In this document: positions 1-20,696 of the stretch, in pieces
Layout: each line of letters starts with the position of its first letter
How positions within the stretch are numbered: position 1 is the first letter of the stretch
Made by a program: the position numbers and the translations under genes
DNA from: Clostridiales bacterium
GTDB taxonomy: Bacteria; Bacillota; Clostridia; DSM-8532
Length of the DNA stretch: 24,000 nt
Assembly: GCA_036729925.1 (NCBI GenBank)
Contig: DAIMRG010000040.1
Coordinates: 1-24,000, forward strand
Reading direction: 5' to 3'
The notes under the pieces: model-generated
Seen by the model: only the letters and a program-made list of their open reading frames with translations
Told to the model about the DNA's origin: nothing
Databases searched by the model: none

Positions 1-149
1 GGATAAATAAGTATCTCTGCGTCAGGGCCGCGCCTTGGCGCATTTTTTTGACCGGGGAACGGCCGGGTTAGGCCACCCGATAGAACTCTGGGTGTTCACT
101 CCGGCAGTGCGTCATGGCGGGTTGCGGCCTGCCGCGGCCGCTCCCCTCC

Positions 150-281
150 CTGCTACACAAAGGCATAGACATTAGCATTATTTCAAAAAGGATGGGGCAT
201 TCCAGTATTAAAATGACTTATGCTACTTATTGCCCTGTACCGCCGGGCCAACAAGAGTTAGCAATGTCAGAGTCCAGCTAA
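150..281 (+). pseudogene. Tyrosine recombinase (integrase) C-terminal fragment
   Basis: The frame ending at TAA 279-281 reads LLHKGIDISIISKRMGHSSIKMTYATYCPV. This matches the conserved LGHSSIxxTxxxY(catalytic Tyr) tail of phage-type integrases. There is no start codon, and the upstream region (about 95-149) only continues weakly in another frame (FTPAVRH). It is too short for the ORF track. Confidence 0.5.
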
Positions 282-332
282 CTAAAGTCAAGTAAAAAGT
301 TAAAAAAAACTTTCTAAGTAAAATGGGCATGC

Positions 333-380
333 AAAGCAGTCCTTTCAAAATAACGAACATTTAATTGAAAGGACTGCTTT
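333..380. repeat. 16-bp perfect inverted repeat (hairpin, 16-nt loop)
   Basis: aaagcagtcctttcaa (333-348) is the exact reverse complement of ttgaaaggactgcttt (365-380). It lies just beyond the stop of the IS110-like remnant. No strong U-tract follows on either strand, so it may be an IS-end structure rather than a terminator. Confidence 0.7.
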
Positions 381-391
381 ATAATTCAGTT

Positions 392-697
392 TTATGCAGC
401 TAACTTATATGTAGCCTTATATCGCTTTTCTTGTTCTTCTGGCGTGATGAATTCAAATGGTTTGCCGTGTTTTAAAACTGAATACACAATCCTTAACAGC
501 TTATTCATAACCGCGCCTAAAGCCTGCTTTTTTGCTTTCGTTTGAACCTTAGTCTGATAGTATGTATGTAAAATAGGGTTTACCAAAGTGCCCTTTGCAC
601 TTTGGCGAATGACAAGGGTAGCGGCATATATAATGCTTTTATTATGAATGCGTCCGAAATATGCACTTGCGATTTTAAGGCGTTTTAGCCAAAATTC
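392..697 (-). pseudogene. IS110-family transposase, C-terminal remnant
   Basis: The open frame from stop 698-700 down to 392 reads ...LKIASAYFGRIHNKSIIYAATLVIRQSAKGTLVNPILHTYYQTKVQTKAKKQALGAVMNKLLRIVYSVL... This resembles the IS110/IS116/IS902 C-terminal domain (laSYaGl...ISKrGn..lR...a..a.r..p.l..fY.....gk..KvAlvAvarKLl). It has no ATG, the listed start is TTG, and only about 100 of an expected 340 or more aa remain. Confidence 0.6.
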
Positions 698-791
698 TTA
701 TTCCTAAAAACATCACTCAAGTTGAAGCTATGAAGTTGGGGGATTTTGTAAAAACATTATATTTCGAATTCTCTTGCAAAAGGTAATGTCA

Positions 792-828
792 AAAAACCGT
801 CACATTGACTCAATTAATGACGGTTTTT
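792..828. terminator. Bidirectional intrinsic terminator downstream of the EVE-nuclease gene
   Basis: The stem aaaaaccgtca (792-802) pairs with tgacggttttt (818-828). A and T runs flank both sides, so a U-tract follows the hairpin on either strand. Confidence 0.6.
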
Positions 829-899
829 ATCTTACAATAATCAGGACATGCGCCGACAGCAGTTTTTGCAATACCTCTCTGTCCTGGTAAGTATTTATT

Positions 900-1877
900 T
901 TATATAGCCTGTAATTCTAATCTTCCGTTTGATTCAATAATATACTGTAAGAGTTTTATTTCTTTATCTTCAAAACGCTTGCGCTGTTTCACATATTCTA
1001 TTACATCAGTATCAAATCGTTTGGCTATGGCACTGACCCGTACCATATTCATGTCACCTTGGACTTTTTTATGAATAAACCACGATTCGTAACCCATCAA
1101 TTGACGGAGAGCTTTGTCATCAAAACGATCCAACTTCACTTCAATGATATCATAGGACATAGTTTGTTGAGCATTATGAGGATTCCCAAAAAATAAGAGA
1201 ATATCAATTTCTGTCCCCAAGTTGGTGGGAATATAACTCAGATAGTCAGTATAGTTTCCAAAAATATCTTGATATTGCCCTTTAACAAAAGCTTCTAACA
1301 ATATTGCCATTAGTGATGCTTCATAACGTGGAAATAGATTATCGAATTTATGTATTTTATCAAACAAATTAGCAGGCTTAACAGGGTATGGTTCCAATAT
1401 AACATTCCGGTTAACTGTAAAAGGATTAATCTTAAGATATTCCTGCAATATAATGTCAAACTCTAAATTGGAAATAGAAAACATAGCGTTGGTGCCACTT
1501 GCCCTATTAAGAGCAAAAGTCCAAATCTTACCGGAATTTCGTAGATCAAAAATATCATTCAACCGTAATGGTTTTTCAAAACTAAATTTCGTACTTTCCA
1601 ACCGAAAACGGAAAGGGTATATTTTCTCAGACCATACGGGAGTATCATCGTAAAACGGCTGTCCTACGGCTGTCCAAATTCCGCGTAATTCTTTTACGCC
1701 CGTTACATAAAACAGGATGTAATCGCCTTCACGAATAATGGCCATTCTTGAAAGCAAGGCATCGTTAGTTGCTTGCTCGTTTTTGGAACCCGAACTCGCT
1801 TCGGGAAGACCTACAATTCCTCTTCGTGTACAAGTATGATAATTCTCATCATCAAGTACAAAGATATGTGCTGGCAT
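900..1877 (-). CDS. EVE/PUA-like domain fused to a PD-(D/E)xK (NucS/DUF91-like) nuclease; candidate modification-dependent restriction enzyme
   Basis: 325-aa ORF with ATG preceded by ggggagaag. The N-terminal half has an EVE-like pattern (GDYILFYVTGVKELRGIWTAVGQPFYDDTPVW...YPFRFRLE...PLRLNDI). The C-terminal half has ordered nuclease motifs: E (RYEASL), D (TEIDILLF), ExK (DIIEVKLD) and QxxxY (RQLMGYESW). A terminator lies at 792-828. Confidence 0.6.
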   Translation of the reverse strand: MPAHIFVLDDENYHTCTRRGIVGLPEASSGSKNEQATNDALLSRMAIIREGDYILFYVTGVKELRGIWTAVGQPFYDDTPVWSEKIYPFRFRLESTKFSFEKPLRLNDIFDLRNSGKIWTFALNRASGTNAMFSISNLEFDIILQEYLKINPFTVNRNVILEPYPVKPANLFDKIHKFDNLFPRYEASLMAILLEAFVKGQYQDIFGNYTDYLSYIPTNLGTEIDILLFFGNPHNAQQTMSYDIIEVKLDRFDDKALRQLMGYESWFIHKKVQGDMNMVRVSAIAKRFDTDVIEYVKQRKRFEDKEIKLLQYIIESNGRLELQAI

Positions 1878-2307
1878 ATTCTTCTCCCCACTAGTAATAT
1901 GCGGTCAATTAATACTATTGTTCAACATCTCCCAGGAATATTATATAATAATTTTTAATTGACCTATACTACTATTACTCCGTTAATTTAATATTCAAAT
2001 TTAGGCAGATATTGAGCATTCTCATTCTAAAAAATCTTCTAAGGCATCTCCAGTGTCTAAACAGTTAAAATTATTTACAATTGCAACCACAGGAAAATCA
2101 ATCGATCACAATTTAAAGTTAGGAAAACGCTGATAATGACTTAGCATCGCAGAAATATGTAGTTTTGAAGTTTAAAAAGAATATATACAAATTGAATTTG
2201 GAGGCTTTTTGTTTCCTGAAACGTTACCCCAAAGCAAATGCACGAAGCTGGGATGATCGAATAAAGCTGACCTTTGACAGGCTTATCAAACAAAACATGA
2301 ACTGATC

Positions 2308-3018
2308 CTATTCCTCCATATGATCCAGCATCTGCTCATTCAGATTGTCCTTAACAGTCCGCCAGTTTGGGTAGAAGTTGTCCATGTACGCCCTAAAGAT
2401 GTCGTTGTGGCTTTTCTCCAACAAATGCACAAGTTCATGGATAACCACATATTCAAGAGATTCAGGCGTTTTCTTTGCCAATTGTAGATTAAGCCATATT
2501 CTTTTTGCTTTAACATTGCATGTACCCCATTTGGTACGCATGTTTTTTATTTGCCATTCACTTGCTTTTATCCCTACAAGTTTTTCAGATTTTTCAACTA
2601 CCGCGGGAATTGCATTTTTCAATATCTCACGATACCAATTATCCATGACATTGGCACGCTGCTGCGTGGTACTATCCCTGCGAACCTGAAGGATAATCTT
2701 CTGGCCGGAAACAGATACATCATTACGGATATTACTGTGTACCACATCTAAACGGTAACGCCTTCCCCATAGATAATGGCTTTCGCCGCTCATGTACTTG
2801 CGTTCGGTTTGCCTAGGTTGTTCAGCGAACTTTTGCCGCTGCTTTTTAATCCACACAATCCGCGATACGGCAAACATTCTGATTGCATCTTCCGTGGCCG
2901 ACAAGGGGGCAGTTATCCGAACCTTCCCATCAGGAGGAATCACCCTAATATACATATTTTTAATCAGTTTTTTTTCAGCGGTCATCTCAATTCCGTTAAC
3001 TGTTAAATTTATCATCAA
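2308..3018 (-). CDS. DUF45/YgjP-like HExxH zinc metallopeptidase (type I RM-associated)
   Basis: 236-aa ORF with the motif VVIHELVHLLEKSHNDIF (HExxH...H) near the C-terminus and the typical RMRTKWGTC segment. Its start overlaps the hsdR stop (3015-3018), which suggests translational coupling. Confidence 0.8.
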   Translation of the reverse strand: MMINLTVNGIEMTAEKKLIKNMYIRVIPPDGKVRITAPLSATEDAIRMFAVSRIVWIKKQRQKFAEQPRQTERKYMSGESHYLWGRRYRLDVVHSNIRNDVSVSGQKIILQVRRDSTTQQRANVMDNWYREILKNAIPAVVEKSEKLVGIKASEWQIKNMRTKWGTCNVKAKRIWLNLQLAKKTPESLEYVVIHELVHLLEKSHNDIFRAYMDNFYPNWRTVKDNLNEQMLDHMEE

Positions 3019-6000
3019 TATTCACTCTGCCCAATTACTATTTTCATAAGTTCTTTAGCCTTAACTTTATCACCATGCAGAACTGCTTCTACCGCACGCC
3101 GTATCTTACGTTCTTTCACAATATTCCCTCTAAAGCCATCTAACCGCGCATCAAGCACAGCGTTGTGTACGCTTATTGCAATTTCTTCATTACTATCCAG
3201 GTTATCAAAAAGCGCCCGCAGTGCCGCACTCGCCCTTATACTTTCAGGGTATCGTGATGTGCTTTCCGGTTTTCGGATGTCTTTCGCCAGCTCTACAATT
3301 TTCTTGAGGTATTCTTCGTAGTTAATAACCTCATTTTTTCGCTGCTCAATAATTTCTCGCAATAACGCCGACATCTTTTCATAGTATTTAGGATTGCTTT
3401 GTTGTTTTTCAACAATTTCTTTCTGTACATTGTTTTCAATGGTTTCGGCTACAGCTTCTTGCTCCTTCTTTGTTTTTGACGGCATATCTTTCACAGCGTC
3501 AACGCCGCACTCAACAAGAAGCTGCACCAGGGGAATATCGCCGAATGAAGACAATACTCTGCTTGGTTTTGCAGAAAGATAAGTATCTATCAAGTGCCTC
3601 ATATCGGGGTCATATCCCTTCAGATCGATATAATCACCGCTGGCCGCACGCACCACATCACGCACTTTAATGAAATACTGTACTTCTTGATCAAGGGCTT
3701 TAATTTGCTCAGAGGTATATGCATATCTTTCCTTTAATTCACCAGATACCTCTGAAAAAGAACGCATGACTGCAGCAGAGAGCTCATAGAGTTGTTCGCG
3801 TTTTGGCATGTTTTCTTCAAGCTCATCCAAATCAAATGCCTCAGAATTTTTTCCGCAAAAATAATGAATATAGTCAATATCTTCTTTTGGTATTGCGACC
3901 GGCTCACAAAGGGCACGCAGTGCCTCCAGGGCATCTTCTAATTGTTCTTTCGCCTTGTCAATGCGGTTGTTGAGCAGACCCGATACGTCTTCCTGATCAT
4001 AATTGTCAAAGGCTTCGGAGGTATAGTCCTCCACCGCTTTTTCAAGAGAACGGAACAAGTCTTTATAATCGATAATATAGCCGAAATCCTTGTCTTCGCC
4101 ATCCAAGCGATTGACGCGGCAAATTGCCTGAAACAGACCGTGGTCGCGCATGGATTTATCGATGTAGAGATAGGTCGTCGGTGGCGCATCAAAACCGGTC
4201 AGCAACTTATCCACCACAATGAGCAGTTTCATCTGGTCCGGCTGTTCAACAAACTTTTGTTTTACTTCCGCTTCAAAGGTATCCGCATCCTTGTCACCCA
4301 ACATCTTGCGATAGATTTCATATTGTTCGGCGGTTTCGGTTTCACCATCCTCGCCAACAGTTTCCGTTCTCAAATCGCTGGGATTGGGCGAATAGGATGT
4401 TACAATCGCACACTTCTTAAAACCGCTGTCCTGAAAAATCTCATAGTATTTGCAGGCTTGATAGATACTGCCAGCCACCAGCATGGCGTTGCCCCGCCCA
4501 TCCTCACGCAGGCGCGGTTTGGTTTCCATATCAAATATAATATCAGATGCAATGACGCCAAGTCGTGCTTTGGAACTAAATACTTTTTGTAAGTTTCAAA
4601 GCACGACTTGGCGTCATTACTAAATTCTTTTTGTAAGTTTCCCCATCGCTTTTTAAGCCGTGCTTTGGACACATCATTTAGCCCGCGCGTTTTCGACTCG
4701 AACCACGCATCAATTTTTTCCTGCGCAGCAACATCCTGCTCCACTTCGCGTGCCTCATAACGCAGATCAAGAACAACCTTATCCCGCACAGCCTCATCAA
4801 ACTTGTATTTATGGATATAAGGTCCGAAAATTTCCAGACTGGTCAACTTGTCTTTTTTCATCAACGGCGTGCCTGTAAAACCGATAAAGGTGGCACCCGG
4901 CAGGATGATGTTCATTGCTTTATGTAGCCGGCCGGATTGTGTGCGGTGGCACTCATCAACAAATACATAGAAATCGCCTTTGGGTGAAAAATTCTGCGGC
5001 AGCGCGCGCTTTATTTCCCCGATAAAACTCTCGTAGTCACGTTCAGATGCCTCGCCGCCTCGCCTGCCAAATTTATGAATCAGCGAGCACATTAGCGGTG
5101 GGGATGTATCATTGATTTTATTGACTAGATCACATCCACTTTTTGTGCGGACGATCTTTTCGTCCACACCCTTGTAAACCCGTTCGATTTGGGTGTCCAG
5201 CTCGTCGCGGTCGGTCACAACCAAAATCCGGCTGTCCGGTATGTTTTCTTTGACCCACCTACTGAGCCACACCATTGTAAGCGACTTGCCGGAGCCCTGC
5301 GTATGCCAAATAATACCGCCCTCACGCTGCCGGATATAATCCTGTGCTGCCTTGACACCAAAAAACTGGTTGGGGCGACAGGTCTTTTTCGTGCCGCTAT
5401 CGTAGACAATAAAATTATGTAAGATATCAACAAAACGCTCTTTGCTGCAAAGGGAAATCAGGTTTTTATCCAGTTTAATCGGGTATTCTTCATTTCGCTT
5501 TCGAATAGATACGGATGCCTCATCCGTCGCATTTTCATCTTCGCGCCATGAGAGAAAATATTTTTCGGGTGTATCGGTTACGCCGTACCGCATCCCTTCG
5601 GAGTCATTGCCTGCCATGATCAGGCCCACTGTGGCAAAAAACGGCAGGATAAACTCTTTGCGCTGGTTAGTGAGGTTTTGGCGTATCCCTTCGGACATGG
5701 ATACCGTGCTGCGTTTTAGTTCAATCACACCAAAGGCGATGCCGTTGATATAGAGCACTAAATCCGGGCGTTTTGATTGCTTGCCGGTATAGGTAACTTC
5801 CTCGGCTATGTAAAAATCATTCTCAAGGGGCTTGTCCCAATTGATAAAATGAACCGTGTTTGTATGCTGTCCAACACTTTCACTGACTTTTGCACCATAA
5901 CGAAGCAAGGCATAGGTGGCTTTGTTGAGATCGTACAGACTGACCTGCTGATTACCTGCTGTATTGAGAAGCACCCGGAGCGCTCTGTCGATTAGAATAT

Positions 6001-6163
6001 TGGAATATCCCTGTTTTTGTAAAAAACCGCGCAGATATTCCTGCTCGATGTTGGAGTTATCTGGACGGTTGGTAAAATCACCGAGATAAATATATCCCAG
6101 CTCATTCACAAAGAGTTTAATGATCCGCTCCTGTATCTTTTTCTCTCTTTCACCGACACTCAT
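3015..6163 (-). pseudogene. hsdR: Type I restriction enzyme R subunit (HsdR), split by a 44-bp frameshifting insertion
   Basis: - The upstream ORF (4400-6163) has the N-terminal PD-ExK nuclease motif (PDLVLYINGIAFGVIELKRS), helicase motif I (HTQGSGKSLTM) and motif II (VFVDECHRTQSG).
- The downstream ORF (3015-4529) starts inside the conserved ...DIIFDMETKPRLREDGRGNAMLVAGSIYQACKYYEIF segment and carries the helicase C-terminal half.
- Removing 44 nt leaves 3105 nt, which is 1035 codons, and brings the two frames into register. Confidence 0.85.
4551..4640. repeat. Quasi-palindromic duplication inside hsdR (22-bp inverted pair plus 22-bp direct pair)
   Basis: - aatgacgccaagtcgtgctttg (4551-4572) is the exact reverse complement of caaagcacgacttggcgtcatt (4597-4618).
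- actaaatactttttgtaagttt (4575-4596) is repeated as actaaattctttttgtaagttt (4619-4640), matching at 21 of 22 positions. Confidence 0.9.
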
Positions 6164-6194
6164 AATATAACCCCCACACTGATGCTTTTACCTA

Positions 6195-7943
6195 TTAACC
6201 AAAAAGCTCCCTACTTTCAACAATTGCTTGCCTGATTGCCTCGTCTGTAAAACAGTCCTTTTTCAGCTTTGATGCCCACTCCTTGTTGGAGCGGATCACT
6301 TCCTTAATGGAATCCAAGGATACCTCCTCGCCGGACTTATCCAGCTCACAAACAGCCACATCCACCGTGGCAAGAACTTCTAAATTGTTTTTCTCTTTGT
6401 ATGTGTTATAATACTTGAATTTTTCATACAGCCAATCGATATTCGATTGCATGCTTCCAACATACTTTAAAGCCTCGTCAATATTCGCGCCCCTGCCGAA
6501 TTTTGAACCTCTATCGCTGCTTTGCCGGACTATATACCTGTTCTTGAAAGCGATGGCCTCGCCTCCCTTGTAGCGAGCTGCCTCGTTATACGGCCCTGCC
6601 GCCTTTTTTTTAAAAGCGGACACATCAGCATGCTGCTTGCGGCGCAAGAGATAGAGAAGCTTTTGCACCTTCACACGCCCAAGCGGGAATTTGTCGTTAT
6701 AAAATGTATTGACGATAGCGGAAATAGCAATGGCATCATCATAATATTTGTTGTGGCCAGTTGACACGACTTTAGGCTTGGCAGCAGTTTTAGTCTGTAC
6801 GGTTGGCTCAACAAGCCGTATTCGCCCCGTGAGCAACTCCTGCAGAATGCCTTGCTTGATAAGACGATATTTAGCCCGCTTTTTCTCAAGCTGCTCGAGT
6901 TCGGCGTCCATATCAGAAAGAATGGCGGCGATGGCAGTTTGTTCTTGATAGTCTGGCAACTCCACTTCGATTTTTTCTATCAGATTAGCACTCAGGCTCG
7001 GAACACCAGACGCTTCATTGTATTGTAGCCAATCAATCATACAAAACAAATAATAGAGATATTTCGCATGGTATCCATTATTAACTTTAGTGTAGAACAG
7101 AGTATCAATTGTCCAAAATGGTGTATCCATATATTGTGGCTTATCTATTGTACCTTTTCTTCCAATTAACACCGTTGGTTTATTCCATATAAATTGATTT
7201 GTGCGCCCGATAATGCCACCAGTAGCAAGTATAGGATATTTTCCGGTTTCATCAACAACGCTATTTTGAGATTGACCGTGTCCTACAGACAACGCTCTGC
7301 CTAAAGGAGCAACACACCACTCCCCACTAAACCCCGGCAAGCGTCTTTTCCCTGTGAGCAGTCCCTGCATCGCCCCCTGCTTTATAGCCTTTTTCTTCGC
7401 AATTAGCTTTTCCAGGGAGATAATCAGGCTGTCAACATCGGTAAGGGCTTCGGCAATAGCTGCTTGTTCATCTTTTTCAGGCAAGGGAATCTCGATTGCT
7501 GATAATTGACGTCCATTTGTTAGAGCACGCGTGGTATAAGTGCATCCTGCCATTATAGACCTGCGTACATCTGGTGTTGAAAAACAGTATTTACAGTAAT
7601 TAATATCAAATAAATCGGTTGTTGGACGCGCACGTAGAACAAAACCACTAAATACGCACTCACCAATATTATCCAGCATAACACTTGCATAGCCAACTTC
7701 TTCTGGCGTTTCAGATGTACGAGTAAAAAAAACATCTCCTTTTTTAACATCAAACCTTCTAATCTCATGTTTCGATAAAGAAACTCGACCTTTAAGCTGA
7801 CTTGCATGTATGCCGTTTCTACGATAGACATCCATATAATTTACAATAGGTATTCCATATCCAAAAAAGGATTTGCCTTTATTTAATCCATTTTTAAATT
7901 CAAAGCATTTACCAATTTTAACAACAGGCCACTTTTTCACCAC
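6195..7943 (-). CDS. hsdS: Type I RM specificity subunit (HsdS) with a roughly 200-aa C-terminal extension
   Basis: 582-aa ORF. Two variable target-recognition regions are separated by the two conserved coiled-coil repeats: EQAAIAEALTDVDSLIISLEKLIAKKKAIKQGAMQGLLTGKRRL and EQTAIAAILSDMDAELEQLEKKRAKYRLIKQGILQELLTGRIRLV. A normal HsdS ends at that point, but this one continues for about 204 aa. It overlaps hsdM by 7 nt. Confidence 0.85.
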   Translation of the reverse strand: MVKKWPVVKIGKCFEFKNGLNKGKSFFGYGIPIVNYMDVYRRNGIHASQLKGRVSLSKHEIRRFDVKKGDVFFTRTSETPEEVGYASVMLDNIGECVFSGFVLRARPTTDLFDINYCKYCFSTPDVRRSIMAGCTYTTRALTNGRQLSAIEIPLPEKDEQAAIAEALTDVDSLIISLEKLIAKKKAIKQGAMQGLLTGKRRLPGFSGEWCVAPLGRALSVGHGQSQNSVVDETGKYPILATGGIIGRTNQFIWNKPTVLIGRKGTIDKPQYMDTPFWTIDTLFYTKVNNGYHAKYLYYLFCMIDWLQYNEASGVPSLSANLIEKIEVELPDYQEQTAIAAILSDMDAELEQLEKKRAKYRLIKQGILQELLTGRIRLVEPTVQTKTAAKPKVVSTGHNKYYDDAIAISAIVNTFYNDKFPLGRVKVQKLLYLLRRKQHADVSAFKKKAAGPYNEAARYKGGEAIAFKNRYIVRQSSDRGSKFGRGANIDEALKYVGSMQSNIDWLYEKFKYYNTYKEKNNLEVLATVDVAVCELDKSGEEVSLDSIKEVIRSNKEWASKLKKDCFTDEAIRQAIVESRELFG

Positions 7944-10417
7944 ACAAACCCCATCCTTTTTAAATGAGATTTGACCTTGCTTTCCAGCTCTGCAACTACC
8001 GCCTCACATTCAGGCAGGGTAAACTCATATCGATCCACCAGTTCAGAAACGCGGGAAGAAAGCCGGTGCGAAACAGAAGAATGAATGGTATCAATTCCAT
8101 TATAAATCGCATGAAACCACTTTTCCTCCACCAGAAGCTGTTTAATTTCCGCATCGGTCAGTTGCTCGTATTTTTCCCTGGCCGCCATGTCTAACATAGC
8201 GTTGAATTCCTTAATCAGCTTCTTGGCATCCGACTCAATCCCTGAAAGGCGCAGGTATTCCTGCAAAACCTCAATCTCCGCCGCACTGTCGGCATCGTTT
8301 GTAATCGACATTATACGAACCTTAATTGTGGCAGCTTTCATATCGTCTAAAGATGAAAAACATCCATCGTCACCGCTGTTTTCTTCCACCAATTCTTCAA
8401 GCTGTGCCGAGATGCCGTCAAGTTCTCCCTGATACTTTTGCAGCGCTTTCAGTTCGTCGAGATAAAAGTGTTCAATTAGCAAGGATTTCGGGATGATTTC
8501 ACCGTCATAGCTTTTGACCCTGTCGGTCTTTTCCTCGACCGTCGTGCCGTTGACTTTTTTCTTTTTCGTCACATACGCATAAACAATTTTACGGCCAATG
8601 CCATAACCTTCAAAACAGACGGCATATACATCGTCCTGCATGGTCTCTGCCCAATACTCCATTAGTTTTTGGTAGACATCGTATTTATCAATCAATGGAA
8701 CATCAGAAAATGCCGTAAGAAGCGCTTCCGACAGTTCATGGATAATCGCTTTCGGGTCATCCCCCTTGCAGAGGTTCATCAGTTTGGAAGTAACCTGCTC
8801 TTTCCAGGCCGTATAAGCACGGTCTACCATATTGGCATGATAAATAAACTCAGGATGAGAGGTAATTGTGCCAACCACATCATCTTTTAAGATTACCGAC
8901 TGGAAATAACCATCGCGCAAAGGCTTGAAAAGCATTTCCTTCATAAAAGGGTACACTTCCCAATATTCAGCCATGCTGTCTATATCGGCGGCCGGAACGC
9001 CACCGTTCAAATGGGCGTTGATATCCTGTAAATCCTCCGGCTCACTGCTGTCAATGTAGCGGGGAATGTTCAGGTTGTATTCGTTGGTTATTTTTATTTC
9101 ATCATTGGGAATAAAGCGCGAGTACTTTTCTATCTGTATCTGGTTATTGAACACCGTAACGATTTTATGAATATCCTGCTCACGCAGGCGATTTTTATTG
9201 CCATCCTTAACGAACTCTTTGGAAGCGTTGATTACAAAGATGCCCTGGCGTTCGGCAGCATCTTCCTTGTCGATTACGATGATGCATGCGGGAATACCCG
9301 TTCCAAAAAACAGGTTGGCGGTCAGACCGATAATGCCCTTGATATACCCACGGTCAACAATTTCCTTACGGATATCCGCCTCTGCGTTACCGCGAAACAG
9401 TACGCCATGTGGCAAAATAATGGCTGCTTTTCCCGTTGATTTTAGGGAGCGCAACACGTGCAGGAACCAAGCATAATCGCCGTTTTTTTCCGGCGGCACC
9501 TTGTATCCGTCGAATCGTCCATAAAGTTCCGTGGCATTATCGCCTTTGACGGTGATGTTCATTCCATCCATCCAAGACTTGTCCGAGAACGGCGGATTCA
9601 TGACGATATAGTCGAAGGTTTTGAGAAGATTGGGATTGCGTTCATCCTTAAACTGCGGGTTAGCAAGAGTGCTTTTGTTGCCTGCCACTTCTGCCGCCGC
9701 CATATTGTGCAAAACAAAATTCATACGGGCAAGACCGGCTGTTTCCTTCGTTTTCTCCTGCCCAAAGATAGCCACATTCGGCGTGCCGTCTGATTTTTTA
9801 GGAGCGGCATCCGCTGCGCGGATTAGTAGCGAGCCCGAGCCGCATGCCGGATCGTAAAGCGTTTTATCTGAGCCGGTTGCCTTGTCAATCCCGATAACCT
9901 GCGCCATGATGCGAGAAACCTCTCCAGGTGTATAAAACTGTCCTTTGCTTTTACCCGACTCCACCGCAAAGTTTTTCATCAAGTATTCGTATGCGTCACC
10001 AAGGATATCATCGCCACCGGCACGGTTGTATGTAAAATCAAGTTCCGGCTTCTGAAAAATCTCAATTAAACCGGAAAGCTTGTCCACGGCCTCTTTATCA
10101 GTGCCAAGTTCCTCGCTGTTAAAGTCAGCAATATCAATGATGCCTTTTAGCTCGTTAGCATCAGCCAGCGCGCCAATAATAACATTGATTCCTTCACCAA
10201 TGTTCTTCGTTCCTTTGAGTTTAATAATATCATCAAAACTTCCGCCTTGCGGGACTTCTATATCCCACGCGTCATTACTTTTGAAACGATCAGAGACATA
10301 TTTCACGAACAGCAAAGTCAATATATAGTCTTTATATCGCGCCGGTTCTACACCTCCGCGCAGTTTATCACATGCAGCCCAAATTTGGTTGTAAATTTCA
10401 CTTTTCTTAATGGCCAT
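7937..10417 (-). CDS. hsdM: Type I RM N6-adenine DNA methyltransferase subunit (HsdM), long form
   Basis: 826-aa ORF. It has the HsdM N-terminal domain (IWAACDKLRGGVEPARYKDYILTLLFVKYVSDRF), SAM motif I (LYDPACGSGSLL) and catalytic motif IV (IVMNPPFSDKSW). A long helical C-terminal region follows. Confidence 0.9.
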   Translation of the reverse strand: MAIKKSEIYNQIWAACDKLRGGVEPARYKDYILTLLFVKYVSDRFKSNDAWDIEVPQGGSFDDIIKLKGTKNIGEGINVIIGALADANELKGIIDIADFNSEELGTDKEAVDKLSGLIEIFQKPELDFTYNRAGGDDILGDAYEYLMKNFAVESGKSKGQFYTPGEVSRIMAQVIGIDKATGSDKTLYDPACGSGSLLIRAADAAPKKSDGTPNVAIFGQEKTKETAGLARMNFVLHNMAAAEVAGNKSTLANPQFKDERNPNLLKTFDYIVMNPPFSDKSWMDGMNITVKGDNATELYGRFDGYKVPPEKNGDYAWFLHVLRSLKSTGKAAIILPHGVLFRGNAEADIRKEIVDRGYIKGIIGLTANLFFGTGIPACIIVIDKEDAAERQGIFVINASKEFVKDGNKNRLREQDIHKIVTVFNNQIQIEKYSRFIPNDEIKITNEYNLNIPRYIDSSEPEDLQDINAHLNGGVPAADIDSMAEYWEVYPFMKEMLFKPLRDGYFQSVILKDDVVGTITSHPEFIYHANMVDRAYTAWKEQVTSKLMNLCKGDDPKAIIHELSEALLTAFSDVPLIDKYDVYQKLMEYWAETMQDDVYAVCFEGYGIGRKIVYAYVTKKKKVNGTTVEEKTDRVKSYDGEIIPKSLLIEHFYLDELKALQKYQGELDGISAQLEELVEENSGDDGCFSSLDDMKAATIKVRIMSITNDADSAAEIEVLQEYLRLSGIESDAKKLIKEFNAMLDMAAREKYEQLTDAEIKQLLVEEKWFHAIYNGIDTIHSSVSHRLSSRVSELVDRYEFTLPECEAVVAELESKVKSHLKRMGFVW

Positions 10418-10422
10418 AACTG

Positions 10423-10662
10423 TTAGTTTACTCCTCTGCCTTTTTCTTGAAGCATGGCTTCAGCCTCTATGCCATGCTGCTCACAAAAGGCAAAGAATAC
10501 CGACTTTGCCATCTTGTTCGGGTGGGTTTTGCCGTTTTCCCACCTGTTAATTGTCGTAAAACTTATTTTTAAGGCATGCGCCATTTCTTCTTGGCTCATG
10601 CCCAATTTATCGCGTGCATATTTCACAACTGAAGGAAAATCCATCGGCTTCACCTCACGCAC
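10423..10662 (-). CDS. XRE-family HTH protein, likely controller of the RM operon
   Basis: HTH_3 pattern: LGMSQEEMAHALKISFTTINRWENGKTHP. It sits 5 nt upstream of hsdM. The listed start at 10662 is GTG. ATG at 10644 with gaggtg 6 nt upstream is the more likely start, giving 73 aa. Confidence 0.75.
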   Translation of the reverse strand: MREVKPMDFPSVVKYARDKLGMSQEEMAHALKISFTTINRWENGKTHPNKMAKSVFFAFCEQHGIEAEAMLQEKGRGVN

Positions 10663-10664
10663 AT

Positions 10665-10673
10665 ATTATAGCA
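10665..10673 (-). promoter_or_regulatory. Extended -10 promoter element (TGcTATAAT) for the RM operon
   Basis: The minus strand reads tgctataat immediately upstream of the HTH gene. There is no good -35. TGCTAT is repeated 12 bp upstream (10680-10685 on the plus strand as atagca). Confidence 0.35.
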
Positions 10674-10891
10674 TATGACATAGCACTTGTGTTACTTTTT
10701 TACAATTTTAGAATATAGTGTTTTGAATATTCACTCCATACGAAAGGAAATCTTATTCCTTTTACCTCTTTTCAAAGCTAACTACTCCCTGACAGCACCG
10801 CTTTTCTTTTCAACTTTAATAGAGAATATAATCGATTAGTTCATAGCAACCAGCCAACATAAAATTAAAACATTTTCGAGGTGATATAATC

Positions 10892-11115
10892 ATGTTCAAC
10901 GACTACCAAGACATCCTAACCGTATATGAGCTATGTGAAATTCTATCCATCGGCAAAAACTCTGCCTACAGCATCCTAAACTCCGGATCAGATCAAAGCC
11001 TCAAGAACAACCGATATGGAAAATCCCGAAATTCGCGGTAATCGATTATGTCTTAAACAGTAGTGGCATGAAAGGTGCAGTTAATCCGACTACTGCTTTT
11101 ACCAGGATCAACTGA
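10892..11115 (+). pseudogene. Excisionase-type (MerR-like HTH_17) DNA-binding gene, doubly frameshifted
   Basis: ATG 10892 with RBS gaggtga. Frame 1 reads MFNDYQDILTVYELCEILSIGKNSAYSILNSG. A second frame continues DQIKASR, and a third continues IWKIPKFAVIDYVLNSSG... ending at TGA 11113-11115. Together they rebuild the canonical excisionase pattern (lt..E.a..L.is..t.Y.l...G.i.a.kig..w.Ipk.av.dy). Confidence 0.5.
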
Positions 11116-11195
11116 CCCCGGTTATCAGTGAAACTAAGCCAGGCAATATTTAATCATGCTTTTTCATTAAATGGTCCGCAAACCACCTAAAACAA

Positions 11196-11236
11196 ATCAA
11201 GCCTTCCGACCAAATCGCCGGAAGGCTTGATTTTAC
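11196..11236. terminator. Bidirectional intrinsic terminator at the 3' end of the tRNA
   Basis: The stem atcaagccttccg (11196-11208) pairs with cggaaggcttgat (11219-11231). T-runs follow on both strands. Confidence 0.6.
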
Positions 11237-11311
11237 TGGAGCGGGTGACGAGATTCGAACTCGCGACCCACGGCTTGGGAAGCCGGTACTCTACCACTGA
11301 GCTACACCCGC
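11237..11311 (-). tRNA. tRNA-Gly (anticodon CCC), CCA encoded
   Basis: The reverse complement is GCGGGTGTAGCTCAGTGGTAGAGTACCGGCTTCCCAAGCCGTGGGTCGCGAGTTCGAATCTCGTCACCCGCTCCA. It folds as a cloverleaf: a 7-bp acceptor stem, a D arm (GCTC/GAGT), an anticodon loop TTCCCAA and a T arm (GCGAG-TTCGAAT-CTCGT). Confidence 0.9.
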
Positions 11312-11344
11312 ATAGTATTTGATTTTACTGGATTTGTAAGGTTT

Positions 11345-11476
11345 CAATAAATTTGCTTCTACCAAAATATCTCGAAAAACGGCTTCGGCTTCCCGAAGCA
11401 GTATCTTCATGCCCGAAAAGCCAGTGTTTTCAACCTTTCCGCCGATTTTTACCGGCTTCCTAAAGCAAATTTATTG
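11345..11476. repeat. 14-bp perfect inverted repeat flanking a 104-bp spacer
   Basis: caataaatttgctt (11345-11358) is the exact reverse complement of aagcaaatttattg (11463-11476). The spacer holds an internal hairpin gcttcgg-cttc-ccgaagc and repeated cggcttc motifs. Confidence 0.6.
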
Positions 11477-11580
11477 TACACTATCTGTGTATAAAAATCA
11501 AGTGCGAGTGATTTCCATTGTCTCAACTTTTGGAATACATCAATATATAGTTAGAATATAAATATAGTGTTGATAAATTA

Positions 11581-11609
11581 TTGACATGCATATATTCAGC
11601 AGGTATAAT
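11581..11609 (+). promoter_or_regulatory. Consensus sigma-A/sigma-70 promoter
   Basis: TTGACA (11581-11586), a 17-nt spacer and TATAAT (11604-11609), preceded by an AT-rich UP-like tract. It lies 34 nt upstream of ATG 11643. Confidence 0.7.
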
Positions 11610-11642
11610 TATTGTACAAAATAAATTAATGGGGTTGATAAC

Positions 11643-12281
11643 ATGTCGATTGAAGCACAGGATAAGCCAAAAGTACAACAAATCTACGTTCCAGCAGCGA
11701 AAGTGGAAATGTTTAATAGGGCTAAAGAAATCTTTAACGAGTCGTTATCTGCCGTGATTGTAAATCATTTAAGTGAATTGGTGGAAAAACGAGAAGCCGA
11801 ACTCATTGGAATGTCAGAACATATCATTGAGATAGGAACTTGGCCACCAAACTATTATAAGTACGGGCAAAAGAATAGCCGAAAAAGATTCTTTGGTAAG
11901 TTGATTCATAAAGCAGATAAAACCCTTTCTGCAGGAACAAATGCTTTTGCTGTTGACTATGCCATCTACGCCACAAAAGGTAATAACTTTCTATTGTATT
12001 ATCATATCCACTATCTCGGAATAGGTGGAAATATGGAAGAGAGTACATACTCAGCCGCTGACTACAAGGTCGTCAAATTTTTGTTCGACGAGGAAAAGCA
12101 AGCCATTAACGAAGATATCCTAGAAGTTGACTGGAGCAATCTGACAGGCATCCCATCATATTATGAGTCCGGAAATTCTATGCCAATTTCATTCCCAAAA
12201 AAAATGACGGTTCCTTTACAATTCTTAGAAGAGGCTTTAGATATATTGGATAAAGTTCCCATTGAGGATTTAGATATCTAA
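11643..12281 (+). CDS. Hypothetical protein, EXLDI-family-like (C-terminus ...PIEDLDI)
   Basis: 212-aa ORF. The N-terminus (IYVPAAKVEMFNRAKEIFNESLSAVIVNHLSELVEKRE) and the terminal E-x-L-D-I match my recollection of the uncharacterised EXLDI protein family. I could not run a search. Confidence 0.5.
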   Translation: MSIEAQDKPKVQQIYVPAAKVEMFNRAKEIFNESLSAVIVNHLSELVEKREAELIGMSEHIIEIGTWPPNYYKYGQKNSRKRFFGKLIHKADKTLSAGTNAFAVDYAIYATKGNNFLLYYHIHYLGIGGNMEESTYSAADYKVVKFLFDEEKQAINEDILEVDWSNLTGIPSYYESGNSMPISFPKKMTVPLQFLEEALDILDKVPIEDLDI

Positions 12282-20646: not shown

Positions 20647-20696
20647 GCACAAAAAAAGAAGGCCTTCCCCCATGAAAAGGCCTTCTTTTTCTGTGC
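20647..20696. terminator. Bidirectional intrinsic terminator
   Basis: gcacaaaaaaagaaggcc pairs (imperfectly) with aggccttctttttctgtgc. A and T runs sit within both arms. Confidence 0.65.

Follow-up and report, generated by a model that had tools for sequence, protein, structure and literature searches.

In contig DAIMRG010000040.1 of a Clostridiales bacterium (assembly GCA_036729925.1), a type I restriction-modification operon has its hsdR gene broken by an additional 44 bp composed of one inverted and one direct copy of adjacent sequence. The window referred to below is the whole stretch analysed, positions 1 to 24,000 of this contig (24,000 nucleotides, nt). With moderate confidence, the extra 44 bp can be regarded as a very recent templated insertion and a real mutation, whether fork-based or repair-based. 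A first-pass annotation of the same DNA had proposed an inverted-plus-direct copy of template-switch type disrupting an otherwise typical hsdR. This core reading gains support from the intact protein P0124, which corresponds residue for residue to the open reading frame (ORF) restored by removing the insertion (1034 of 1034 residues identical to its valine version in a pairwise comparison).

The arrangement of the lesion claimed earlier was reproduced base for base by script, including the perfect reverse complementarity of P2 to P1 and the 21-of-22 identity of Q2 to Q1. Its elements are:

4551-4572, plus strand: P1, AATGACGCCAAGTCGTGCTTTG, template of the inverted copy; its minus strand encodes SKARLGVI of HsdR; present in the intact allele of contig L084.
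4573-4574, plus strand: GA, the spacer between P1 and Q1.
4575-4596 (4575-4597 as a direct-repeat copy), plus strand: Q1, ACTAAATACTTTTTGTAAGTTT, ancestral sequence identical to L084.
4597-4618, plus strand: P2, inserted, the reverse complement of P1 at 22/22 positions; neither L084-L089 nor L001-L008 have it.
4619-4640 (4619-4641 as a direct-repeat copy), plus strand: Q2, matching Q1 at 21 of 22 positions.
4564-4574 and 4659-4669, plus strand: the two copies of the SKARL-coding 11-mer CGTGCTTTGGA, the second of which was already present in the ancestor (L084) and is not the template of P2.

The first base of P2, C4597, is ambiguous with the ancestral C, and once the shared following C is counted, a repeat search extends the direct repeat to 23 nt (4575-4597 / 4619-4641). 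The sole mismatch between Q1 and Q2, A at 4582 versus T at 4626, changes a GTA valine codon of the minus strand to glutamate; relatives carry V, M, L or I at this residue. The hairpin reported before, 22 bp with a 24-nt loop, holds as a perfect 22-bp core, and the repeat search widens it to 27-nt arms (4551-4577 / 4592-4618, 26 of 27 positions complementary) around a 14-nt loop. No other perfect inverted repeat in the 24-kb window is as long as this one of 22 nt; in 30 shuffled windows the maxima were 8-12 nt. The folding energy of the lesion hairpin as single-stranded DNA is -31.5 kcal/mol (z = -9.65), a value that none of 200 shuffles reached. The structure is thus far beyond chance.

The insertion creates two novel junctions, TAAGTTT/CAAAGC and GTCATT/ACTAAAT (the slash marks the break), or in longer form …TGTAAGTTT/CAAAGCACG… and …GGCGTCATT/ACTAAATTC…; the intact junction, Q/CCCC, reads …TGTAAGTTT/CCCCATCGC…. 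Neither novel junction nor the 4626 T variant has a second occurrence in the window or among the fetched loci, and no template for this T was found there.

The effect on the gene is that of a +2 frameshift after HsdR residue 514, which splits hsdR into two ORFs:

4400..6163, minus strand: N-terminal ORF of hsdR, 587 amino acids (aa), with the HSDR_N nuclease domain and lobe 1 of the SWI2/SNF2 ATPase, followed by an out-of-frame tail past residue 514.
3015..4529, minus strand: C-terminal remnant of hsdR, a 504-aa ORF starting at METKPRL, with a T1R_D3-like helicase lobe 2 and the C-terminal helical domain.

An ORF check bore out the earlier description of an N-terminal frame running into nonsense with a restart at METKPRL. 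The statement that removal of either 44-bp unit restores continuity was equally borne out: deletion of Q1+P2 or of P2+Q2 yields a minus-strand ORF of 3105 nt (3015..6163, 1034 aa and a stop) whose junction reads ...KKRWGNLQK(E/V)FSSKARLGVIASDIIFDMETKPRL.... The helicase motifs fall on both sides of the lesion, with DECH (motif II) and FTGTP (motif III) upstream and TGFDAP and QAICRVNR (motifs V and VI) downstream. The N-terminal fragment retains the nuclease domain and motifs I-III but has neither motifs V-VI nor the second motor lobe, and the C-terminal assembly domain is missing too. No Shine-Dalgarno sequence was found upstream of the METKPRL ATG, and the true hsdR start is preceded by GGGGG. 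The insertion makes no detectable terminator-like site, and its one weak promoter-like match equals chance expectation. An exact look-up of the 504-aa C-terminal ORF returned no record, the gene caller of the source having used a 452-aa product.

Gene identities were assigned by Pfam, NCBIfam and PADLOC profile searches. The two hsdR ORFs jointly cover the Pfam families HSDR_N, SWI2_SNF2, T1R_D3-like and T1RH-like_C. Against TIGR00348 (hsdR; cut-off 284.55) the restored protein reaches 505.9 bits, and its residues 2-1028 match the 1034-position PADLOC model REase_I from end to end. It also aligns with EcoR124I HsdR (PDB 2W00, the closest solved structure; E ~ 1e-33), and the gene lies next to hsdM and hsdS on the same strand. 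These profile matches are strong evidence that the restored protein would be a typical HsdR, with every tested family feature present save the intact frame, which is broken past residue 514. Because of this interruption the gene is filed as an hsdR pseudogene, or disrupted allele.

The state of the locus before the event is documented by contigs that encode P0124:

L084: ERZ922857, SRR1561999.
L085: ERZ922858, SRR1561950.
L086: Logan assembly of SRR1561950.
L088: ERZ724022, an accession four away from that of the window's assembly.
L089: ERZ27283034.

Over stretches of up to 15.9 kb, these contigs (L091 is likewise listed) agree with the window at 99.97-100% identity; all are without the 44 bp, and the only further differences are 4626 and a few scattered single-nucleotide changes. 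Over 15.9 kb, L084 differs from the window only by the insertion, by position 4626 (T in the window, A in L084) and by position 8270. Because near-identical contigs carry it without the 44 bp, the pre-event sequence P1-GA-Q-CCCC is exactly known, and this ancestral state resolves the direction of the event, as a template-switch assignment demands.

More distant relatives tell the same story. A scan of species-representative genomes covered 327 relatives, of which 80 loci were kept, and all 80 match without interruption across the junction. In the closest eight of these (89-93% amino-acid identity) the nucleotide alignment lacks the 44 bp and reads KKRWGNLQKVFSSKARLGVIASDIIFDMET. A large protein search returned 12 matches at 83-95% identity, each exactly 1034 aa long, and in the comparison with L082 (91% nucleotide identity) the 44 bp are the only insertion or deletion in 4.6 kb. 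The earlier reading was to fall if orthologues carried the segment in frame; the ten closest nucleotide-aligned relatives are without it, in addition to the 80 uninterrupted loci. Megablast of 4200-5000 against E. coli genomes and plasmids gave no match, so the locus is not enterobacterial. An exact scan of JGI metagenome contigs for P1-GA-Q1 gave 0 matches, and a protein search with the frameshifted-tail peptide returned none, not even its own protein P0121, and is therefore uninformative.

Several observations concern the strain itself. Position 8270, the sole difference from L084 beyond the lesion, is C in the window and T in L084; it is synonymous (HsdM E716) and could mark a sub-strain linked to the lesion. 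Save for this position, the window has the single-nucleotide polymorphism (SNP) profile of SRR1561999 (L084), and ERZ724022 has that of SRR1561950. In all contigs of the strain (L084, L085, L088, L089 and L092, spanning four assembly series) the end lies no more than about 40 nt from window position 1, and SRR1561950-type contigs carry a cluster of five SNPs at window positions 17-70; this pattern suggests a repeat or a strain-variable boundary at position 1. At one end of L092 (ERZ27283046, MEGAHIT), positions 1-70, corresponding to window 3825-3887, switch to another hsdR lineage, with 14 mismatches in 60 nt against the window and 91% identity to L001; hence a second homologue of this hsdR, divergent in sequence, exists in that sample.

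The inserted DNA is entirely local, being the reverse complement of P1 followed by a copy of Q. P2 bears bases specific to P1 of the window lineage (CAAAG…CTTGGC in the window versus TAAAG…CTCGGT in L082), and therefore was copied locally and not from a co-occurring relative. A cross-strain chimeric assembly is excluded on similar grounds, both copies bearing window-lineage bases. The SKARL 11-mer had been suggested as the repeat at which strands switched. Its two copies do exist, the first at 4564-4574 and not at 4563-4573 as originally placed, but this role is not upheld: the second repeat (4655-4669) has C where P1 has T4563, and P2 carries the complement of that P1-specific T together with flanking P1 sequence. 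P2 was thus copied from P1, and the microhomology that suits the first jump is AGTTTC/GGAACT instead.

4572-4577, plus strand: GGAACT, ancestral microhomology able to pair with AGTTTC (4592-4597); both hexamers are present in L084.

Starting from the ancestral P1-GA-Q-CCCC, the insertion could have arisen through two polymerase jumps. The strand synthesised in the plus orientation of the window would have copied through Q to 4597, whereupon its 3' end, AGTTTC, would have folded back on GGAACT, located either on that nascent strand itself or on its counterpart across the fork. P1 would then have been copied backwards for 21-22 nt, producing P2, before a return to the original template 23 nt upstream of the exit point, from where Q would have been copied again as Q2 with one misincorporation at 4626. 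In four-point coordinates, 1 would be 4597 (exit), 2 would be 4571/4572 (start of reverse copying), 3 would be 4551 (its end) and 4 would be 4575 (return). This implies the order 3-2-4-1, which would place the event in the "4 before 1" class. Taken as a single event (L->1, 2->3, 4->R), these points account fully for the 44-bp insertion and leave the 4626 substitution unexplained.

The four-point model (Loytynoja & Goldman; Walker et al. 2021, PMC7954356) is mechanism-agnostic. It allows intra-strand switching if point 2 precedes point 1, and since it does so here, an intra-strand fold-back is possible. Events of the "4 before 1" class look like one large insertion and need re-opening of the newly made duplex, and microhomology or pre-existing structure at switch points is typical of short-range template switches, though not obligatory (PMC7954356). 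The pairing available for the first jump comprises 6 nt, five Watson-Crick pairs and one G.T, with the terminal base matched, and it is because this pairing pre-exists that the final hairpin has 27-nt arms. The ancestral region folded as single-stranded DNA shows no significant structure (z = -0.40).

Several findings weigh against a real, fork-based switch. The lesion is present in a single contig with a k-mer coverage of 3.58, namely NODE_1048_length_31620_cov_3.58, a SPAdes-style metagenome contig of ENA ERZ724026 whose end, reverse-complemented, corresponds to window 1..12163. Only this contig, in its ENA and NCBI copies, yields the truncated 587-aa and the C-terminal 452-aa products, and the sister assembly ERZ724022 as well as the assemblies of SRR1561950 and SRR1561999 are all intact. 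The return jump (P2/Q2) has 0 nt of microhomology, which is awkward for simple replicative realignment. Finally, an untemplated substitution at 4626 sits inside the new copy against a background of about 1 SNP per 16 kb elsewhere, and one poorly supported read would give the same picture. Its clustering with the rearrangement therefore points either to a polymerase error during the event or to weak read support.

Some of these facts give weight to an in-vitro origin, a possible though less likely explanation. The 44 bp would then have been confined to one or a few chimeric library molecules, formed for instance by template switching in amplification or end repair, and would have entered the metaSPAdes contig through very low local coverage, the real genome having an intact hsdR. 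Besides the k-mer coverage, such an origin would suit the restriction of the lesion to one contig while at least five same-strain assemblies, apparently of the same study (a "fermentation metagenome" project), are intact, and also the extra mismatch inside the lesion where 15.9 kb hold just one other difference. Joining of opposite-strand sequence from close by, at inverted repeats, is a known effect of library preparation (PMC7531576, PMC10908179). However, the artefacts described are single-junction fold-back chimeras at the ends of fragments or reads (PMC7531576), whereas here two jumps lie 22 nt apart. The ancestral inverted repeat available for a fold-back is only 6 nt long with a G.T pair, in a region devoid of significant structure, and at a depth of about 5 reads one chimeric read would normally be expected to lose in bulge removal. 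Nor can the assembler have invented the junctions, because both are novel k-mers that need reads containing them; if ERZ724026 re-assembles SRR1561999, its reads must hold both alleles. On the side of a real mutation stands the form of the lesion itself, a 22-nt excursion with return, formed of two junctions and collinear with its flanks for kilobases on both sides. A real mutation is favoured because a short reverse-copied stretch with a return is the signature of in-vivo template switching (PMC7954356).

A real mutation might also have come about by break repair rather than at a fork, which appears doubtful. According to this scenario, DNA broken beside Q would leave a 3' tail that would snap back on GGAACT/AGTTTC, extend by 21-22 nt and join the other end without homology, and fill-in over a staggered overhang would yield the second copy of Q together with the misincorporation. 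Such a course would accommodate the zero microhomology at P2/Q2, and the 23-nt duplication resembles a target-site duplication. Given the general character of end-joining polymerases, the untemplated error 8 nt past the junction would suit a low-fidelity repair polymerase. On the other hand, the window gives no evidence of a nuclease or end-joining machinery, and sequence alone cannot separate this route from a fork-based switch, the four-point model being neutral as to mechanism.

A further conceivable reading makes the lesion a reversible ON/OFF switch of restriction, in which frequent precise excision would maintain a mixed population of restriction-proficient (R+) and restriction-deficient (R-) cells. 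If this were so, a bioreactor population would toggle between the two conditions, with both states of one strain turning up among the sister samples. Direct repeats around a strong hairpin favour slipped-strand deletion, and the 23-nt repeats bracketing the strong 27-bp hairpin have this geometry; moreover, both alleles are found among samples with the same strain. Yet such a switch is very improbable, as 0 of more than 80 relatives carry this or a similar insertion, which suggests no conserved or recurrent device of the kind that would be kept among relatives in a phase-variable type I system, such as simple-sequence repeats or an invertible hsdS with its recombinase. The locus has no simple-sequence repeats, invertase or recombinase, and one repeat copy has a mismatch. 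A small mobile element with a target-site duplication, such as a miniature inverted-repeat transposable element (MITE) or an insertion sequence (IS) remnant, has a negligible probability: the direct repeat flanking the insert is a superficial resemblance, the junctions and the insert are found nowhere else in the window or the fetched loci, and insertion of a MITE or IS is rejected by the local origin of the entire insert. There is nothing in support of either phase variation or a mobile element.

The operon in which the templated insertion lies is encoded entirely on the minus strand in the order HTH-hsdM-hsdS-hsdR-ygjP-EVE (HTH, helix-turn-helix). Apart from the two hsdR ORFs, its members are:

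10423-10662, minus strand: HTH gene.
7937-10417, minus strand: hsdM, 826 aa, intact, with one synonymous difference from L084 (8270, codon E716).
6195-7943, minus strand: hsdS, 582 aa, intact, with no difference from the sister allele.
2308-3018, minus strand: gene for a YgjP-like/DUF45 metallopeptidase, its start overlapping the hsdR stop (TGATG).
900-1877, minus strand: 325-aa ORF with a marginal EVE-domain match, downstream of ygjP and kept in L082 and L084.

With hsdM and hsdS intact while the second motor lobe is removed, the locus is predicted to have lost ATP-driven translocation and cleavage and to have kept HsdM/HsdS methylation (R- M+, restriction-deficient and modification-proficient). 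As a prediction, this supports the probable R-minus, M-plus state put forward in the first-pass annotation, since a single synonymous substitution is all that separates hsdM and hsdS from the sister allele. The overlapping ygjP-like gene is probably translated less as well. The "EVE-nuclease" formerly named as a neighbour stands in part: the 325-aa ORF has a marginal EVE match at residues 45-145 (23.9 bits, cut-off 23), but neither a nuclease nor any further domain was found in it with Pfam, NCBIfam or PADLOC. This ORF is present in L082 and L084 and absent from L083.

The modification genes show peculiarities of their own. hsdS is unusually long (582 aa), and the segment past its two Methylase_S regions (residues 366-574) shows a sub-threshold similarity (E = 2e-9) to the C-terminal portion of the DarG antitoxin model NF048014; the length of hsdS varies in close relatives (L082, 613 aa; L083, 413 aa). 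In hsdM the N6_Mtase domain stops near residue 461 and is followed by a C-terminal extension of about 360 aa without a family match, the length of 826 aa being kept in L082, L083 and L084. The HTH-hsdM-hsdS-hsdR-ygjP cassette is found amid mobile-element genes, namely those for a resolvase, a NikA-like protein and a relaxase in L083 and for RadC, Fic and HTH_17 in L082. Records from Christensenellales, Peptococcaceae, Syntrophomonadaceae and Paenibacillus share the cassette at about 90% identity, which suggests its horizontal spread. Elsewhere in the window, an intergenic 20-nt inverted repeat at 20647-20696 (GCACAAAAAAAGAAGGCCTT / AAGGCCTTCTTTTTCTGTGC, 95% complementary, 10-nt loop) has the look of an intrinsic terminator.

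hsdR is a commonly lost gene, and the lesion adds one more case to a known type of mutation, as an ordinary loss of function or possibly a library artefact. If real, it would be an unusually clean bacterial "4 before 1" template-switch insertion with an ancestral allele known base for base, in which a single event makes a long perfect hairpin and knocks out a defence gene, leaving a strain without restriction but with methylation and thus more open to incoming DNA. The practical upshot is annotation of the gene as a disrupted hsdR; the understanding of type I systems and of template switching is otherwise unchanged.

Comparison with known systems places the lesion closest to short-range template-switch mutations (PMC7954356), with which it shares 22 nt present as the reverse complement of adjacent sequence, two switch points, the creation of a perfect inverted repeat and, relative to the ancestor, the appearance of one large insertion in 3-2-4-1 order. 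Bacterial quasipalindrome mutations (PMC7202029, PMC6357072) perfect an existing imperfect inverted repeat and change few bases, whereas here an ancestral repeat of about 6 nt gave way to a new 22-27-bp hairpin and a 23-nt duplication. Unlike both classes, the present case combines a return jump lacking microhomology with an extra untemplated substitution. Chimeric library reads (PMC7531576, PMC10908179) likewise bring nearby opposite-strand sequence into one molecule and are nucleated at an inverted repeat, but they are single-junction events located at the ends of reads, with a low allele fraction, in contrast to the two junctions and the in-register return to the original strand observed here. 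At the level of the operon, the locus shares with EcoKI/EcoR124I-type R- M+ systems the hsdM/hsdS/hsdR arrangement and, given the lost second motor lobe, an expected loss of restriction with modification; it differs from them in the unusual C-terminal extensions of hsdM (826 aa) and hsdS (582 aa) and in the accompanying YgjP-like and EVE-like genes.

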